Source: Candidatus Multivorans sp. (GTDB lineage: Bacteria; Acidobacteriota; Thermoanaerobaculia; Multivoradales; Multivoraceae). Taken from it: a stretch of 64,000 nt of DNA. The notes under the pieces were generated by a model, which worked only from the letters and a program-made list of their open reading frames with translations, was not told where the DNA came from and did not search any database. Position numbers and translations under genes: made by a program. Every line of letters starts with the position of its first letter. Position 1 is the first letter of the stretch. The stretch spans positions 3,866,341 through 3,930,340 of the forward strand of contig OZ242353.1 of assembly GCA_965208755.1 (NCBI GenBank). Reading direction: 5' to 3'. Shown here in pieces: positions 15,270 to 56,466 of the stretch.

Positions 15270-15557
15270 ATGGTGGTGCGTGCGACCTACTCACTCGACG
15301 AAGCTACCGTTCGGCGCCTTCGGCGAACGGCGGAGCGGCTCGGAAAACCCCAGAGCCAGATCGTTCGCGAGGCGATCGCCGACTATGCGGCCCGTTGCGA
15401 CAGGCTGAGCGAGGTCGAGCGGCTCAGGATGCTGGAGGTGCTCGGCCGACTGCGCAGCGCGCAGGTGACGGGCTCGGCGGAGGCTGTCGAGGCCGAGTTG
15501 CGTGAGATCCGCGAATCCCGTCGCGTCGGCTGGGACCGCGAGTCCGATCGGCGATGA
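15270..15557 (+). CDS. vapB: Ribbon-helix-helix (CopG/VapB-like) antitoxin
   Basis: 95 aa with an RHH-like N-terminus (SLDEATVRRLRRTAERLGKPQSQIVREAIADY). ATGA overlap with the downstream PIN gene. Confidence 0.65.
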   Translation: MVVRATYSLDEATVRRLRRTAERLGKPQSQIVREAIADYAARCDRLSEVERLRMLEVLGRLRSAQVTGSAEAVEAELREIRESRRVGWDRESDRR

Positions 15558-15928
15558 TCCACCTTGACACCTCGGCCCTGGTGGACGCTCTGGTGTCTCC
15601 TCACCGTTCGTTCGACCGGCTGATGTCCTTCGTTGAGGACGGCCACCGTTTGTGCATCTCCACACTGGTTCTGTACGAGTGGCTGCGCGGTCCGCGAACG
15701 GTGGCGGAGCGACTGGCGCAGGAGCAGATCCTGCCGGCCGCTGCCGCCGTGCCGTTCGACGCCGAGGCCGCGGCCCGGGCTGCCGAGATCTACGAAGTCG
15801 TCTCGCGGCCCCGCCGCCGCCAGGCGGACATCGCGATCGCGGCGTGCGCCCTGGTTCAGGGCGCCGCGCTCTGGACGCTCAACGAGCGCGATTTCGCGGA
15901 TGTACCCGAGCTGGAGATCGTCCAGTAA
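15554..15928 (+). CDS. vapC: PIN-domain ribonuclease toxin VapC
   Basis: MIHLDTSALVDAL ... acidic PIN residues ... TLNERDFADVPELEIV, classic VapC. Confidence 0.8.
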   Translation: MIHLDTSALVDALVSPHRSFDRLMSFVEDGHRLCISTLVLYEWLRGPRTVAERLAQEQILPAAAAVPFDAEAAARAAEIYEVVSRPRRRQADIAIAACALVQGAALWTLNERDFADVPELEIVQ

Positions 15929-16582: not shown

Positions 16583-16843
16583 ATGATTGAAGTCAGTCGC
16601 TTCTACGGGATCGTCGTCGAGATGGAGTGTGGAGACACCCCTCCGGCCCACTTCCACGTCCGATACGGCGGTGCGGTCGCGTTGATCGGCATCGAGAAGA
16701 TGACCATGCTGAAGGGCCGCCTCCCGCCGCGCGCCCTCGGTCTGGTGATGGAGTGGGCTGAGTTGCACCGGGGCGAGTTGCGGCAGGCCTGGAAACGGGG
16801 GCAGCGCTCGGAAGACCTGGGGAAGATCGCGCCGCTGGAGTGA
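16583..16843 (+). CDS. DUF4160 family protein
   Basis: MIEVSRFYGIVVEMECGDTPPAHFHVRYGG matches the DUF4160 N-terminal signature. No DUF2442 partner is present. Confidence 0.65.
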   Translation: MIEVSRFYGIVVEMECGDTPPAHFHVRYGGAVALIGIEKMTMLKGRLPPRALGLVMEWAELHRGELRQAWKRGQRSEDLGKIAPLE

Positions 16844-16932
16844 GTGGTAGGCCACTCTGGTGGCTGCGCTCATCGCTGGAAGTGACTACGATCGACTGAC
16901 GACCGGCGGTCGGATTCACAGGAGGAACCAGG

Positions 16933-17877
16933 ATGAATCAACGAGTACCAGCAGCGACGCTTGCGTTCGTGGGGACGCTCTTCGTCTCGACGGGTTGCGG
17001 TGGCCAGCAGTTGGTCTACCGGCTCGACCCCGAGTTCGGCACCCGGTACGCGGGTAGCACGACGACGGAGACGCGGACGCAGACCCAGATGCAGGGAATG
17101 GACATCGAAGTATCGATCACGATGCGGATGGATCACGACGTGGTGTTCGAGGCGGGATCGGACGACACGGTGGTCGGGCGCTACACGACGACATCCGTGT
17201 CGGTGGAGATGGGCGGTATGCCTGGCCTGGATCAGATGCCGTTCGACCTGAACGACCTCTACCAGGGGATGGTCGGCGTGACCTTCACCTTGGTGATGAC
17301 CCGTGGCGGCGAGATGGTCGAGTTCGATGGGCTCGAGGCGATGATGGACGTCATGCTGGGTCGGCTGGAGGCGCCGGACGAGCTTCGCGCCATGATGGGC
17401 CAGTTCCTTGAAGGGAACTTCGGAGAAGACCAGATCAAGCAGATGGCCGGGCAGTCCGGTCTCTCAATGCCCGATCATCCGGTGGCGGTCGGGGACGCCT
17501 GGACGGATTCGGTGAGCGCTCTCGGCATCGACATCGAGACGACGTACACGCTGACTGACCGAAGCGACGGCCTGGCGGCCATCGATGCGACGGCGACGGT
17601 TTCGGGAGCCGATGATGCCGGCTTCGAGTTTCCGGGCGTCCCGAGCGTGCCCGGCATGGAGATGCGCTTCGAGAATCTGTCTGGTGCGCTGGAAGGCTCG
17701 TACGAACTCGACGAGTCGACCGGGCTGACGTCGGCCTACAGCATGAACATGACCATGGACACCGACATGGTGATGGAGATGCCTCAGGCGGAAGGTCAGC
17801 CGCCTGGCGCCTCTTCCATGTCCATATCCATGTCGATGGAGACGTCAGTGGAGGGGACGCTCGGCAAGGCTGAGTAG
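16933..17877 (+). CDS. Lipoprotein, hypothetical (Met-rich)
   Basis: Signal peptide with lipobox LFVSTGCGG. RBS AGGAGGAAC upstream. Confidence 0.55.
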   Translation: MNQRVPAATLAFVGTLFVSTGCGGQQLVYRLDPEFGTRYAGSTTTETRTQTQMQGMDIEVSITMRMDHDVVFEAGSDDTVVGRYTTTSVSVEMGGMPGLDQMPFDLNDLYQGMVGVTFTLVMTRGGEMVEFDGLEAMMDVMLGRLEAPDELRAMMGQFLEGNFGEDQIKQMAGQSGLSMPDHPVAVGDAWTDSVSALGIDIETTYTLTDRSDGLAAIDATATVSGADDAGFEFPGVPSVPGMEMRFENLSGALEGSYELDESTGLTSAYSMNMTMDTDMVMEMPQAEGQPPGASSMSISMSMETSVEGTLGKAE

Positions 17878-17985
17878 TGCGCACCAGTTGACGCACCTCG
17901 CCGGGCCGCGGTTTGGCGTCCCGGGGCGCCGGGAGACCATGTATTCTCGGCTCGCGCGTGGGGCCACTGCCCGCGTGCCTCCGCG

Positions 17986-19458
17986 ATGGTGGCGGTCGAG
18001 CATCACGTAACCGACCAGAAGGCCCGAGGGGCCTACTACACACCACCTGAGACCGCCGCCGCGCTGGTCCGGTGGGCCGTTCGAGACCCTGACGAGCACA
18101 TGCTCGACCCGTCCTGCGGCGACGGCCGGTTCCTCGCGCTACATCCCCGCAGCACCGGTGTCGATTGCGACGCCACGGCAGTCTCCAGTGCAACCGAGGC
18201 GGCACCTCGCGGAACCGTAGAGTGTGCGGACTTCTTCGATTGGGCCGCGTCCACGACGCAGCGCTTCGATTGCGCGGCCGGCAACCCCCCCTTCATCCGC
18301 TACCAGCGGTTCACCGGCGAGACGCGACGTCAGGCCCTGAAACTCTGCGCTACGTTGGGCGCCAAGTTGTCGGGGCTCTCGTCGTCCTGGGCACCGTACC
18401 TGATCGTGACCGCTTCTCTGCTTCGGCCCGGCGGCCGGATGGCTTTCGTCGTGCCAGCTGAGATCGGCCATGCTCCCTACGCGGCCCCGGTCCTCGACTG
18501 GTTCGCGGGTCACTTTGACGATGTGCAGTTGGTTCCGGTCCGGAAGAAGCTGTTCGCGGACCTGTCGGAAGATGTCTGGCTTCTCTACGCCGATGGCTTC
18601 GGCGGGAGGACGGGCCACTTCGACCTCGCGCTCCACGAGCGTTTCGTGTTCCGGTCCGAACCGCCGATAGCCGACACGCGCGTGTCGGTCCGAGAGTGGC
18701 GTCGCTGGGGCTCTCGGCTCCGGCCGATGCTCTTGCCGAGCAGGATTCGCGACGCCTACGAGAGGCTCAGAGACTCCGACCTGACCACCCCGCTCGGGCG
18801 AGTGGCCGGCGTAGGCATCGGCTACGTTTCCGGCGCCAACGACTTCTTCCACCTCCGCCCATCGGAGGCGGAGGAGTTGGGTATCCCGACGGAGCTGTTT
18901 CGCCCAACGGTCCGAAGCGGCCGGGAACTCCAGGCCGGGGCGATCACCGATGAGACGGTTGCAGGTTGGCGAACCAACGACAGGCCGAATTTCCTGCTGG
19001 CGCTCGGCCCCGAGACACCGCTGCCCGACACGGTCAGCCGTTACCTGGATTCACCTCGTGGCATCGAAGTCAGGAAGCGCTACAAATGTCGCATCCGAAC
19101 TCCGTGGTACGCGGTGCCCCATGTGTCCGTGCCCGACCTCTTTCTCTCGTACATGAGTGGAGAAGGGCCCGCCCTGGTCGAGAACCAGGCTCGTTGCACC
19201 TGTACGAACGCGGTCCATGGCGTCCGTCTGAACGACAGAGGCGTCACTGCGTCTCACCTCCGCCGGCGGTGGGAGACGACTCTGACTCGTCTCAGTTGCG
19301 AGATAGAGGGCCATCCGTTGGGCGGCGGCGTGTTGAAACTGGAGCCGCGCGAGGCGTTGAATGTTCTTGTGTGTCTGGAGGGCGACCTGGATGCCGGCGA
19401 TGAGCGCGGCCTGAAGGAGGGAGTCGAGACTCTGCGCCGGTGGCGGCACCGTGGCTAG
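17986..19458 (+). CDS. Gamma-class N6-adenine DNA methyltransferase (type II, M.TaqI/Eco57I-like) with a C-terminal target-recognition domain
   Basis: ARGAYYTPPE (motif X/I), DPSCGDGRFL, and NPPF (motif IV). Confidence 0.8.
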   Translation: MVAVEHHVTDQKARGAYYTPPETAAALVRWAVRDPDEHMLDPSCGDGRFLALHPRSTGVDCDATAVSSATEAAPRGTVECADFFDWAASTTQRFDCAAGNPPFIRYQRFTGETRRQALKLCATLGAKLSGLSSSWAPYLIVTASLLRPGGRMAFVVPAEIGHAPYAAPVLDWFAGHFDDVQLVPVRKKLFADLSEDVWLLYADGFGGRTGHFDLALHERFVFRSEPPIADTRVSVREWRRWGSRLRPMLLPSRIRDAYERLRDSDLTTPLGRVAGVGIGYVSGANDFFHLRPSEAEELGIPTELFRPTVRSGRELQAGAITDETVAGWRTNDRPNFLLALGPETPLPDTVSRYLDSPRGIEVRKRYKCRIRTPWYAVPHVSVPDLFLSYMSGEGPALVENQARCTCTNAVHGVRLNDRGVTASHLRRRWETTLTRLSCEIEGHPLGGGVLKLEPREALNVLVCLEGDLDAGDERGLKEGVETLRRWRHRG

Positions 19459-20338
19459 ACAGACGAACCGTTGTCGCTGGATCGGCCTCTCCGAGGCTCT
19501 CGACGCGTTTGTCTCTGTGCCCGGAAAGTCCCAGAGTCAGGCCCACATCCGGCCCCTACACTGGTACACCGCTTGCCGGCTCGTGGTTGAAGGCGGCTTT
19601 CACCCGGACGACATCGTTCCACGACCGCCTTTCTCGGTGCGCCGCTCGCGTGGCGGCCATGTTCTGGTTCACGACCCGGAAAGCGCGGCGGGAGGTGAGT
19701 TGACGGTGCTGGGAGGCTTGAAGACAAAGGACGTGGATGTCGTCGTCAGCAAGCCAGGCATCGGCCCCTGTGTTGCCGTGTCGATCAAGGGCACGCTGAA
19801 TGCCTTTCGTAACCTGACAAACCGCATGGAGGAAGCGGTCGGCGACTGTACGAACCTGCACATCTCCTACCCGAACCTGGTCTACGGGTTCCTCCACGTC
19901 ATTCGCGCCAACCGGGAAGGCCCCTTGGCGCGCGATGCGGCGCACTTCCTCAAAGCTGACGGTGCGGGCAACGTCGCCGCCAACGACATCGCCATCCGGG
20001 ATGACGGCGGAGTGGCCGAATCGATCGTTCGCTACCACGATGTTCTTCTTGGTCTCACCGGCCGCGACGGCGTGCGGAACGACATCTCGCGTTACGAGGC
20101 GCTGGCGCTGGCTCTGGTCGATCCGGAGAATCGAGCCGTGCTCCCGGACTGGCCGTCGGCCGAAAGCCCGCTTTGCATCGAGAAGTTCATGGACGCGATC
20201 TACCGCGCGTACGACCAGCGCTACGTTTACGCCGCGCCCAAGCTGGCGAAACGAACCGCCAGGTTCGCCTGGCGGGCCGACTCCCCGGCGTTCGCCGAAC
20301 CGTTGGCGGCAGCGTTCGCGCGACGGCTGGGGCACTGA
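19451..20338 (+). CDS. Hypothetical protein, possibly the cognate restriction endonuclease of the adjacent methyltransferase
   Basis: 295-aa ORF whose start overlaps the MTase stop by 8 nt. Candidate PD-(D/E)xK-like stretch HDPES...ELTVLGGLKTKDVDVVVSK. No confident family match from sequence alone. Confidence 0.4.
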   Translation: MARQTNRCRWIGLSEALDAFVSVPGKSQSQAHIRPLHWYTACRLVVEGGFHPDDIVPRPPFSVRRSRGGHVLVHDPESAAGGELTVLGGLKTKDVDVVVSKPGIGPCVAVSIKGTLNAFRNLTNRMEEAVGDCTNLHISYPNLVYGFLHVIRANREGPLARDAAHFLKADGAGNVAANDIAIRDDGGVAESIVRYHDVLLGLTGRDGVRNDISRYEALALALVDPENRAVLPDWPSAESPLCIEKFMDAIYRAYDQRYVYAAPKLAKRTARFAWRADSPAFAEPLAAAFARRLGH

Positions 20339-20357
20339 GATCACCTGAGCCGAAGAG

Positions 20358-20936
20358 ATGCCGCGCCGCGTCACCTACCAACTCAGGATCGATCTGAAGG
20401 GAACGAAGCCCCCCATCTGGCGGCGGGTTCTCGTGCCGCCTTCGTTCCCGCTTGATCGCCTGCACGAGGTCGTCCAGGTGGCCATGGGTTGGCTCGACGT
20501 ACACCTCCACATGTTCGTCAAGGGTCGACAGACCTACGCCCTCCCGAACCCCTGGGATGACGATTGGGCGCTTCCCGGAATGCCCGCGACACTCGATGAG
20601 AGAAAGTTCCGGGTCGGCCAACTTCTCAAGCGCGAGAAGGACTGGATCAGGTACGAGTACGACTTCGGCGACGGCTGGGAGCACCGAATCACGCTCCAGA
20701 AGATCCTCCCGTACGACCCGGCTCTCCTTCTCCCGGCATGCACTGGCGGGAAGCGGCACTGTCCGCCTGAAGACTGCGGCGGCGTTTGGGGCTACTACCA
20801 CAACCTGGAAGTCCTCAATGACCCGAAGCACGAGGAGTACGAACACATCCGGGAGTGGATGGGCGCCGGGTTCGACGCGGAGGAGTTCAGCGTCGACGAA
20901 GTCAACGAAGTGCTCCGTTCGATGGACCCGGCGTGA
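20358..20936 (+). CDS. Plasmid pRiA4b ORF-3-like family protein (PF07929-like)
   Basis: IWRRVLVPPSFPLDRLHEVVQVAMGW...HLHMF and YEYDFGDGWEH motifs typical of this family. Confidence 0.7.
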   Translation: MPRRVTYQLRIDLKGTKPPIWRRVLVPPSFPLDRLHEVVQVAMGWLDVHLHMFVKGRQTYALPNPWDDDWALPGMPATLDERKFRVGQLLKREKDWIRYEYDFGDGWEHRITLQKILPYDPALLLPACTGGKRHCPPEDCGGVWGYYHNLEVLNDPKHEEYEHIREWMGAGFDAEEFSVDEVNEVLRSMDPA

Positions 20937-52729: not shown

Positions 52730-53682
52730 TTGCGGAACTGTACGGGCAGACCCTCGACGACCGCATTGATCCCAGCCTTTGCCGAACCGCTCAGTGCCCG
52801 TTCATTGGGGCGATTTGCGATGGTGGGGGAAACCGCGATATGGCGCGAGTCAGCGCCTCGGATTTAACGCTTGGCCACCTTTTCTCACGCTCGGTGGGGC
52901 AGGAGACCGAGGGCTGGTTGCCGTGCGGCGTCTGCTCCGTGCGCACTAGCAGCAACAAGGCCTGGGCAATCTGTCCTCATCGCCTGTTTGGCTTCGGTCC
53001 GAACGGTGTATCTCCCAGGCACCGTGATCTGGCTCAGCGGGTGTTTCGCCTCGCGGGCTTCGAGCCAGGCCAACTGGTAGGCGTCTGGCCGGAGATCACC
53101 CTGTCTGAGATAGGTGAAGGCGGCCAGCAGTTCAGGTACCGACTGGACTACGTTCTTCGGGCCATGGACGCTGCTTCGTCGCCGCCGATTATCGTTGAAG
53201 TCATGACGTGCTCGACATCGGGGGGCAAGAAAGCAAAGGGCACAGACATTCAGGCGGCTTTCAAGCGCGCCGTACTGTTCGCTCACACGCCCGCAAAGGA
53301 GGAAGTGGCATCTCCTGGCGTCAACCTGCGGCAAGTTTGGGCGCGGATGGCTTCTCAACTCGTGGCTAAGTCCGAAGCCGCGAACAGCTGGGGCGGCCGG
53401 ACCATCTGGATCGTGCAGGACCTGCTCGCCGACTACATTCGCACACAAACCGCTCTACCGTTGGATGATCTGCACTCCGACGACTGGTCGCCTCACGAGG
53501 TCAACATGGTGGTGGCCGATCTGGATGGGCCAGTGGCTCTTTACGCGGGACCCATCCGTTCTCAGAACGGAGACCGGCGCTGCTGGCTTGAGATCCTCGG
53601 CGCTCCTCATCTCCCTTCTCTCGCGTCCATGACTAGGAAGTTGAACGACGTTCAGCCGTTAGCGGTCGTCGCGGCCCTCTAG
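52720..53682 (+). CDS. NotI-family type II restriction endonuclease
   Basis: N-terminal Cys cluster and WAICPHRLFGFGPNG block aligned by eye to NotI (TGTCPF...C...GVCVVN...WLVCPNR...LFGYGP). Start overlaps the MTase stop by 10 nt. Confidence 0.65.
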   Translation: MPVVAELYGQTLDDRIDPSLCRTAQCPFIGAICDGGGNRDMARVSASDLTLGHLFSRSVGQETEGWLPCGVCSVRTSSNKAWAICPHRLFGFGPNGVSPRHRDLAQRVFRLAGFEPGQLVGVWPEITLSEIGEGGQQFRYRLDYVLRAMDAASSPPIIVEVMTCSTSGGKKAKGTDIQAAFKRAVLFAHTPAKEEVASPGVNLRQVWARMASQLVAKSEAANSWGGRTIWIVQDLLADYIRTQTALPLDDLHSDDWSPHEVNMVVADLDGPVALYAGPIRSQNGDRRCWLEILGAPHLPSLASMTRKLNDVQPLAVVAAL

Positions 53683-53693
53683 GGAAGGCGACC

Positions 53694-54107
53694 ATGGTTG
53701 ACACCGTGTCTCGGGAACGCCGGAGCGAGATTATGGCCCTCGTCAGGTCGAAGGACATGAAGCCCGAGATGGCGGTGCGCCGGATCACTCATGCGATGGG
53801 CTACCGCTACAGGCTTCACCGGAAGGAACTGCCAGGAAGGCCGGATCTGGTGTTTCCGGCCCGCAGCAAGGTGATCTTCGTTCACGGTTGTTTCTGGCAC
53901 CAGCACTCACCTTGCAAGAATGTGCGAGAACCGAAGTCGAACCGAGACTACTGGCTCCCGAAGCTCAGACGGAACGTCGAGCGAGATGTGGAGAACCAAG
54001 CGCGGTTGTCCGAGATCGGTTGGCGAGCGTTGGTCCTGTGGGAGTGCGAGGTGCGAAGTCGGAACGATACAGCCCACCGCATCCGAGAGTTCTTGGAGCG
54101 TCCATGA
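53694..54107 (+). CDS. vsr: Very-short-patch repair endonuclease
   Basis: LVRSKDMKPEMAVRR...FVHGCFWHQHSPCK...WECE, canonical Vsr. Confidence 0.85.
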   Translation: MVDTVSRERRSEIMALVRSKDMKPEMAVRRITHAMGYRYRLHRKELPGRPDLVFPARSKVIFVHGCFWHQHSPCKNVREPKSNRDYWLPKLRRNVERDVENQARLSEIGWRALVLWECEVRSRNDTAHRIREFLERP

Positions 54108-54283
54108 GGTGTCGGGACGAGCCGAGGTCCAAGCGCCCCTGCGGGCGTCCGAAGCGTCTGAGGCCGGAGTTTCCCGATCCGACGCGACGAGGGACGGTCT
54201 GGGAGAACAACGTTTGCCAACGCGAAGGCTGCTTGGTCCGAGCCTCCGGCCTAGGAGCCGACTGAAGGCCTGACGACACGCTG

Positions 54284-54622
54284 GTGGACCTCCAAGGCTG
54301 GCTTCCCGTGATCGGCGTCGCCCTCGCAGCGACCGCTCTGCTCACTAGAGTCGTCTGGCGGCGAGCTGAGGCGCAGGGAACCAAGAGGGCGCTTCGCTTG
54401 GAGATCTTCGAGCAGGCCAGAACCGGGGAACTCCGAGGGCCGGCGCTTCGCCACAAGGCCCAAGATGCTGGCTTGGCGAAGCGAGAGGTTCAGTTCGTCG
54501 TCGAGTACCGAGGGAAGCAGAACAAACTCCTGAATCACGGGTACGGGGCTTCGAGCGAGCAAGACGAAGCCGAAGCTGCAAGACTCACGCAGGAGTTTGA
54601 GCGCATCCTGCTAGGCGACTGA
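54284..54622 (+). CDS. Small hypothetical protein with an N-terminal TM helix
   Basis: GTG start. WLPVIGVALAATALL TM segment, the rest is charged and helical. Weak call. Confidence 0.3.
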   Translation: MDLQGWLPVIGVALAATALLTRVVWRRAEAQGTKRALRLEIFEQARTGELRGPALRHKAQDAGLAKREVQFVVEYRGKQNKLLNHGYGASSEQDEAEAARLTQEFERILLGD

Positions 54623-54721
54623 GCCCGCCTGGCTGGCTTCCGATGCAGGCCCACGGCGTCCCGTGACCGGGGACCGGAGGAGAGGGTTGGCGCCGGGCCT
54701 TGTTGGTCGCCATGCACAGTG

Positions 54722-54925
54722 GGCACGAAACGCCCCGCCTATTCGCCGAGCGCCGGGAGCGACCCGGCGCCTGGTGTCGACTGTTGTATTCGGCAGGAGA
54801 CCCGGCTCGCAGGCCCACGGCGCGACGACAACCAACCACGAGAAGCTACCGCGCCGCCGATTGCGCGTCAAACGAACCGGCCAGCGGTCGGGCAGGGGCC
54901 GAGACGGATGCCGAGGTGAGACTAG
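54722..54925. repeat. ~190-bp repeat family copy A, ending in a truncated 3-codon ORF with RBS
   Basis: Shares GGGAGCGACCC...GGCAGG..CCGGCTCGCAGGCCCAC.GCGC..GACGAC.AACCAACGAG...GAGACGATG with copy B at 58975-59165. About 70-75% identity over 150+ nt. Confidence 0.55.
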
Positions 54926-54942
54926 GGCTTGGCCGCGCCTGG

Positions 54943-55641
54943 TCAGGGGAGGGCGGCCGTCGCCGCCGCGACCATCAAGCCCGCCAGACCGATCTCCAGC
55001 ACCTTTCCCGCGGCCCAGTTGATCGCGGCGATAGCGAACCCCGCCGGCCTGGACAGCCGGAACACGGCGGCAGCGCCCAGGCCGAGCAGAAGAAAGGACC
55101 AGACGAAGACGAAGGAGCTGACCATCAGGTCGAGAATGGCGCCGGGCGCGATGGCGGCCACGACCGCCAGCGCGTCCAGCCCTGAGCCCGCTTCTCTGTT
55201 CAGGACGTTCCGTTGAAACTCAAGGAGGCCGCCGACCTGGGTGGTTCTCAAGGCCGAGCGGACCACTAGCCCCACGGCGCTGATCAGGCTGACGTGGAGC
55301 GCCAGCGACAGGCACTGTTCGATGCTCGCCCGACCCTTCAGGGCCGCCGCCAGGAGCCGGAGCACGACGGTCTCGAACAACAGCGCGAGCGGGATGGCCG
55401 CGAGGAAGAACGAGACCATCCCGTATGGAATCTCGAGAGAGTCACCGATGCTCTCCATCGCATCGCCGAACCACCAGGCAGTCAGCAGACCGGCCAGGAG
55501 CACCAGGAAGATGCCCAATGCCAGGCCTGCGCCCCACGGATGGTGCTCGCGGATGACGACGAAGCTCTTCCGCGGAGCGGTGAAGATCCAGATCAGGGCT
55601 TTGAACCAGAGGTGACGGCTGGCCTCCGGTCGCTCGCCCAT
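54943..55641 (-). CDS. Yip1-like polytopic membrane protein
   Basis: N-terminus WFKALIWIFTAPRKSF then about 5 TM helices. Paralog of 55687-56466 (NAWLKALIGIFTSPRQSFEII). Confidence 0.55.
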   Translation of the reverse strand: MGERPEASRHLWFKALIWIFTAPRKSFVVIREHHPWGAGLALGIFLVLLAGLLTAWWFGDAMESIGDSLEIPYGMVSFFLAAIPLALLFETVVLRLLAAALKGRASIEQCLSLALHVSLISAVGLVVRSALRTTQVGGLLEFQRNVLNREAGSGLDALAVVAAIAPGAILDLMVSSFVFVWSFLLLGLGAAAVFRLSRPAGFAIAAINWAAGKVLEIGLAGLMVAAATAALP

Positions 55642-55686
55642 TTGGGGGACTGTATCGACTGGGGATCGACCTGCGCGATGGCCGCG

Positions 55687-56466
55687 TCAGGTCGGCATGA
55701 GTCGGGCTGCCAGGCCAATCGTCGCGGCCGCGAAGGCCGTCGTCGTTGCCCAGTAGATGGCGGCCAGCAGCCAGGCCTTGCGCTGTGGGACCTCGAACGC
55801 CGCGGCGGCGCCTAGGGCGAGCAACGCGAGAAACCAGACCGTGAACGGATTGATGCTCGCGTAAACGACGTTGAGCGTCGCGTTGTCGCCGGCCAGCAGC
55901 AGGTCGAGTCCCATCGGCGCCTGGAGGTCCAGTTGCGATCGGATCGCGTCGGTGCCACGGACGTGGAGGAGAAGGAAGTTGGCCCAGCTCTTGAGGTGGG
56001 TGATCACGGCCAGATGGACCATCAGGGAGAGGGACTGGACAAATCGGGGCCGTCCCTTGAGTGCTACCGCCAACAGCCACACGAAGACGGTCTGAACCGC
56101 GAGTCCGAGGGCCAGTTGCAGGGGTCCGGTGGCCATCGAAACCCATCTCGCCGCCGCGGCCGTCTGCTCGATCTGCGCCATCATGGCGTCGACCTGTTCC
56201 GGGTTGCCCGGCATCCGCTCCGTCAACTGGTTCCGCATCGCCTGGAGACCCAGAGGCGCCGAGGACATCGCCAGGGCGGCGCTTCCGGCTACGAGAAGAA
56301 GCAGCGGCGCGAGCCATGGGTTGCGGCGCCGGATGATCTCGAAACTCTGCCGCGGCGACGTGAAGATCCCGATGAGCGCCTTGAGCCAGGCGTTCCGGCC
56401 CTGTGAGTGGTCGCCGGTGGCTTTGATGTTGCGTTCGTCGTGGATGCTGCCTGCGTGCTCGGTCAT
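55687..56466 (-). CDS. Yip1-like polytopic membrane protein
   Basis: Internal Met start MTEHAGS at 56466 in an ATGA overlap with the ABC ATPase stop. The track ORF extends to 56604 inside the ATPase gene. Confidence 0.55.
   Translation of the reverse strand: MTEHAGSIHDERNIKATGDHSQGRNAWLKALIGIFTSPRQSFEIIRRRNPWLAPLLLLVAGSAALAMSSAPLGLQAMRNQLTERMPGNPEQVDAMMAQIEQTAAAARWVSMATGPLQLALGLAVQTVFVWLLAVALKGRPRFVQSLSLMVHLAVITHLKSWANFLLLHVRGTDAIRSQLDLQAPMGLDLLLAGDNATLNVVYASINPFTVWFLALLALGAAAAFEVPQRKAWLLAAIYWATTTAFAAATIGLAARLMPT

Follow-up and report, generated by a model that had tools for sequence, protein, structure and literature searches.

Five consecutive open reading frames, all on the forward strand, make up the islet analysed here, which lies in a window (the whole stretch of DNA that was analysed) of 64,000 nucleotides from Candidatus Multivorans sp. 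Our analysis reproduces the coordinates of all five given in the initial annotation (Table 1) and, on the basis of Pfam and PADLOC matches and sequence motifs, also its assignment of four of them to a DUF4160 protein, a lipoprotein, a gamma-class N6-adenine methyltransferase (M) and a PRiA4_ORF3 family protein. The remaining ORF (R), which begins inside the end of M with an overlap of exactly the 8 nucleotides described earlier, has no match in Pfam or NCBIfam. Its gene is miscalled in the public annotation, where it appears as a 212-aa product in what is apparently the same genome. The GC content of the islet (0.647) shows a small dip relative to the flanks (0.684-0.687), and the GC3 of both M and R is 0.78, against 0.87-0.94 in the flanks.

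Table 1. Features of the islet and its immediate upstream neighbour (window coordinates)
Feature	Residues	Position	Strand	Description
VapBC-like pair		15270-15928	+	RHH antitoxin 15270-15557, PIN toxin 15554-15928; just upstream
DUF4160 gene	86 aa	16583-16843	+	DhiT-like, solitary; neighbour of the module, not a member
DUF6263 gene	314 aa	16933-17877	+	Probable lipoprotein; neighbour of the module, not a member
Methyltransferase gene (M)	490 aa	17986-19458	+	Gamma-class N6-adenine methyltransferase
M motif X, YYTPPE	aa 17-22	18034-18051	+	Sequence reading
M motif I (AdoMet-binding), DPSCGDG	aa 41-47	18106-18126	+	Sequence reading
M motif IV (catalytic), NPPF	aa 100-103	18283-18294	+	Sequence reading
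M C-terminal M_Eco57I_C target-recognition domain	aa 335-462		+	Pfam
M/R overlap		19451-19458	+	8 nt, GTGGCTAG; GTG of R and TAG of M
R gene	295 aa	19451-20338	+	GTG start; predicted type IIP restriction endonuclease
R codon E47		19589-19591	+
R codon D96		19736-19738	+
R codons S111-I-K113		19781-19789	+
R codons R120-E128		19808-19834	+	Includes E127
PRiA4_ORF3 family gene	192 aa	20358-20936	+	Variable neighbour

Motifs X, I and IV follow one another in this order in M and precede a C-terminal target-recognition domain, which places the protein in the gamma class. It matches the Pfam families M_Eco57I_C (3e-12) and N6_Mtase (4e-5) and the PADLOC model MTase_II (E 5e-87). The best solved relative is M.TaqI (E 5e-6 over aa 13-158); both M.TaqI and the M.Eco57I type share the motif order and the C-terminal recognition domain with M, but the sequence likeness to M.TaqI is confined to the catalytic N-terminal half. 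Wherever the region is readable, every related locus keeps the G-x-G core of motif I, and NPPF is kept as well except in one locus (L023), where it is deleted. M is probably a gamma-class enzyme of the monomer type, akin to M.TaqI and M.Eco57I, and by analogy with its family it would use S-adenosylmethionine to methylate the N6 position of adenine in a short site on both strands of the host DNA. Gene order is M followed by R, with overlapping reading frames, in the TaqI system too, and in XhoI/PaeR7I the gene of an m6A gamma-class methylase likewise precedes that of the nuclease. However, the TaqI nuclease model has no detectable similarity to R, and more distant plasmid homologues of M are partnered by large Eco57I-like fusion enzymes instead.

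The initial annotation had proposed R as the restriction partner of M and had named a clear non-nuclease fold as one outcome that would count against this. The predicted fold of R is that of a restriction endonuclease (PD-(D/E)xK), with an alpha-beta-beta-beta-alpha-beta core, and the proposal is further borne out by invariant putative catalytic residues and a near-constant linkage to M. The 68 R homologues are invariant at E47, E83, K93, D96, S111, K113 and E127/E128. In the loci of 80 species, tabulated for all of these residues but E47, they are kept as well, with the exception of a truncated R in locus L062. The motif D96...S111-x-K113-X13-E127 is of the permuted active-site type found in the Cfr10I/NgoMIV group. 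As in that group, the second acidic residue would be shifted from the beta-strand carrying S111-x-K113 to the next helix, where E127 lies 14 residues past the lysine; the order of motif and secondary structure elements suggests that D96, K113 and E127 cluster in space. The spacing K113-X13-E127 agrees with the signature PD-K-X12-13-(E/D) quoted for the CCGG family (PMC5389614); the same paper names E201 of NgoMIV and E204 of Cfr10I among the catalytic residues. From the fold and the motif we infer that R is a Mg2+-dependent PD-(D/E)xK endonuclease, which would cut the site of M when unmethylated, probably as a homodimer.

The permuted active-site motif is common to R and the CCGG family (Cfr10I/NgoMIV/Bse634I/PspGI/Kpn2I), but there are also differences. 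The segment between K113 and E127 of R reads GTLNAFRNLTNRM and contains no (D/E)R, so the R-(D/E)R motif that recognizes CCGG is absent; the helix carries F119-R120-N121...N124-R125, which is invariant in the 68 homologues. In addition, the cognate methylase at this locus is an N6-adenine enzyme, and no solved member of the CCGG family resembles R at the sequence level; a search of all PDB chains with the R sequence and with the 68-member profile returned nothing meaningful.

Weak but recurrent matches to restriction endonuclease models, all far below the curated thresholds, were found when the whole R family was considered. The REBASE-derived PADLOC models REase_II PDLC03558 and PDLC03540 (type II REase) match 46 of the 68 members (best 2.3e-6, collinear over ~100 residues) and 48 of the 68 (best 8e-4, over the catalytic core), respectively. 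Pfam XhoI (PF04555) is matched by four of the 68 at best E 0.03; the cut-off is 25 bits, and the best individually shown match reaches 12.5. The R protein of the window itself does not match PF04555. Apart from this sub-threshold XhoI similarity, Pfam scans of distant family representatives, plasmid homologues and the family consensus revealed no bridging family. XhoI has been classed as PD-(D/E)xK by sequence analysis (PMC2441816). The matches of the R family to the XhoI and PADLOC models are collinear over the catalytic core and the ~100 residues that follow it, although R family members exceed the 247-position model by ~50 aa. The suggestion in the initial annotation that R may be a novel endonuclease is overstated for an unnamed family that comprises 2101 clusters (at 90% identity) and occurs in 458 species genomes, with members on plasmids of cultured Alphaproteobacteria and with recurrent homology, weak as it is, to restriction endonuclease models.

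The association of R with M extends over many phyla. An orthologous methyltransferase lies directly upstream of R in 78 of 80 species genomes, and the identities of the two proteins co-vary. The pair is also present on both conjugative plasmids inspected (from Methylorubrum extorquens CM4, with the genes at 53292-55821 of pCMU01, NC_011758.1, and from Cereibacter azotoformans), and in distant carriers the genes flanking it are entirely different. Cultured carriers include, besides M. extorquens CM4, C. azotoformans ORIO and Belnapia mucosa T6. A stop/start overlap between M and R is found in 72 of 79 related loci, 8 nucleotides being the commonest length (38 loci), and R starts with GTG in 44 of 80. 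Because the GTG start of R lies within the final codons of M, synthesis of R probably depends entirely on ribosomes that are completing M. Translational coupling at this overlap, which its conservation suggests, would hold the level of the nuclease below that of the methylase. The dN/dS of R is 0.10-0.14, equal to that of M and of housekeeping neighbours. Two related loci show decay of the pair: L062 has an intact M beside a fragmented R, while in L023 M is broken by the deletion and otherwise conserved positions of R are substituted. Such patterns are typical of restriction-modification systems.

Taken together, the methyltransferase motifs, the adjacent nuclease-fold gene with conserved catalytic residues and the linked inheritance across unrelated genomes are those of a type II system. 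R is very probably a restriction endonuclease belonging to a widespread but unnamed family, and the pair is therefore read as an ordinary type II restriction-modification pair; we put the probability that 17986-20338 is a self-contained type II (IIP-like) module at roughly 85%. Palindrome counts, taken as a pointer to the recognition site, in ~1 Mb of DNA from carriers only, for which there is no carrier-free control, place CAGCTG (observed/expected 0.41-0.45) and CTCGAG (0.67-0.74) among the most depleted 6-mers. A literature search on the R protein accessions and on the methylomes of carrier strains yielded nothing usable.

It is conceivable that M acts effectively as an orphan, in an epigenetic or protective role, and that R no longer restricts, being either a relic with a nuclease fold or a DNA-binding partner without catalytic activity. 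One locus (L067) has an R gene with no methyltransferase within 6 kb, and in L026, L028 and L055, as in L023, a broken M stands beside an open R frame. In the first three of these M is frameshifted while R is apparently intact, a combination that one would not expect of a lethal nuclease, except where assembly errors are involved or another methylase protects the DNA; the family also has no sequence-level match to a characterised enzyme above a curated threshold. However, the frameshifted M genes come from metagenome-assembled genomes, in which indel errors may plausibly occur, and all tabulated putative catalytic residues are kept across the 80 species of many phyla. A dead gene would hardly be expected to show a dN/dS of ~0.1, strict linkage of M and R and a conserved overlap, and we regard this alternative as very improbable. 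A living nuclease of a non-classical kind, that is a nicking or methylation-dependent enzyme or one needing an unlinked subunit, in place of a simple homodimeric type IIP enzyme, is likewise very improbable. Gamma methylases of ~490 aa with one target-recognition domain are typical of palindromic-site systems, and M is of this type; the loci examined all have just one nuclease gene beside M, and a methylation-dependent enzyme beside its own methylase would be self-destructive.

A structural match of R to NucC is expected because NucC is itself a restriction-endonuclease-fold protein, and R might on this ground be taken for a NucC-like effector nuclease, activated by cyclic oligonucleotides in CBASS or type III CRISPR defence, that stands beside a methylase by chance. 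The ties of NucC to second-messenger systems (cyclase or CRISPR) were not seen around R: the neighbourhoods inspected contained no reported cyclase, CARF, SAVED or CRISPR family, and R is instead strictly associated with a methyltransferase, to which it is linked in all but two of the 80 loci. The chance that R is such an effector is negligible.

The other genes of the islet behave differently from the restriction-modification pair. DUF4160 matches its Pfam family at E 1.3e-16 and the NCBIfam model DhiT at 55 bits, below the 100-bit cut-off. The gaps flanking it measure 98 and 89 nucleotides, and the small ORFs that overlap them are without any Pfam match, so that DUF4160 stands without DUF2442 as previously described; it is solitary in relatives too. 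A DhiT/DhiA (DUF4160/DUF2442) toxin-antitoxin pair was considered and rejected, as the DhiT score lies below the equivalog cut-off and no DUF2442 is adjacent. The DUF6263 product (Pfam E 5.7e-28) begins with MNQRVPAATLAFVGTLFVSTGC, which reads directly as a signal peptide followed by a lipobox-like cysteine (TGC); some relatives have its gene at full length, others lack it, and in L001 only a 58-aa remnant is left. PRiA4_ORF3 (Pfam E 1.1e-63) starts 19 nucleotides past the stop of R. Six of the 14 closest relatives have it at full length, as does L062, where it is situated between two fragments of R; L007 carries two copies. The VapBC-like pair (Pfam RHH_1 3e-7, PIN 1.6e-14) has counterparts of 97-99% identity in both L007 and L017 and is absent from L001, L009 and L012.

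In contrast to the M-R pair, DUF4160, DUF6263 and PRiA4_ORF3 are confined to close relatives of Ca. Multivorans, where they are variably present and have been gained and lost independently. The view that the five genes form one cargo set is thus not supported, as only M and R travel together. Of the 14 most closely related genomes, at least 13 carry the pair in synteny at the same chromosomal site, which indicates an old resident and not a recent arrival. Where the initial annotation proposed horizontally acquired cargo, this synteny and the housekeeping-like dN/dS argue against recent cargo in this lineage. In agreement with this, no tRNA was found in the 64-kb window, no convincing direct or inverted repeats flank the islet, and no integrase or recombinase family match occurs among the genes scanned. 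Matches to promoter and terminator consensus sequences around the islet were at or below chance expectation. The M-R pair has accordingly been kept vertically at one site in the Ca. Multivorans lineage, though elsewhere it has spread between phyla and on plasmids. The VapBC-like pair, DUF4160, DUF6263 and PRiA4_ORF3 are independent, exchangeable occupants of that variable spot.

Nothing at this locus would surprise a specialist. Its analysis nevertheless proposes a function for a widespread family of hypothetical proteins, with more than 2000 clusters, a presence in 458 species and no Pfam or NCBIfam model, and makes the R family a candidate source of a new, or a thermally and chemically different, restriction specificity. 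One tentative possibility is that the family forms a distinct Cfr10I-like branch with a permuted site, in which the R-(D/E)R helix has been replaced by the invariant R-N...N-R and which, together with an adenine methylase, would read an A/T-containing site assigned to no characterised enzyme. If true, this would be an example of re-targeting of a nuclease scaffold, and phyla that are largely uncultured would provide a new specificity; the invariant helix on a Cfr10I-like scaffold offers a small test case for the re-targeting of recognition. For Ca. Multivorans, the locus presents a restriction-modification pair retained at one site through speciation, while the small genes next to it, a toxin-antitoxin pair among them, come and go.

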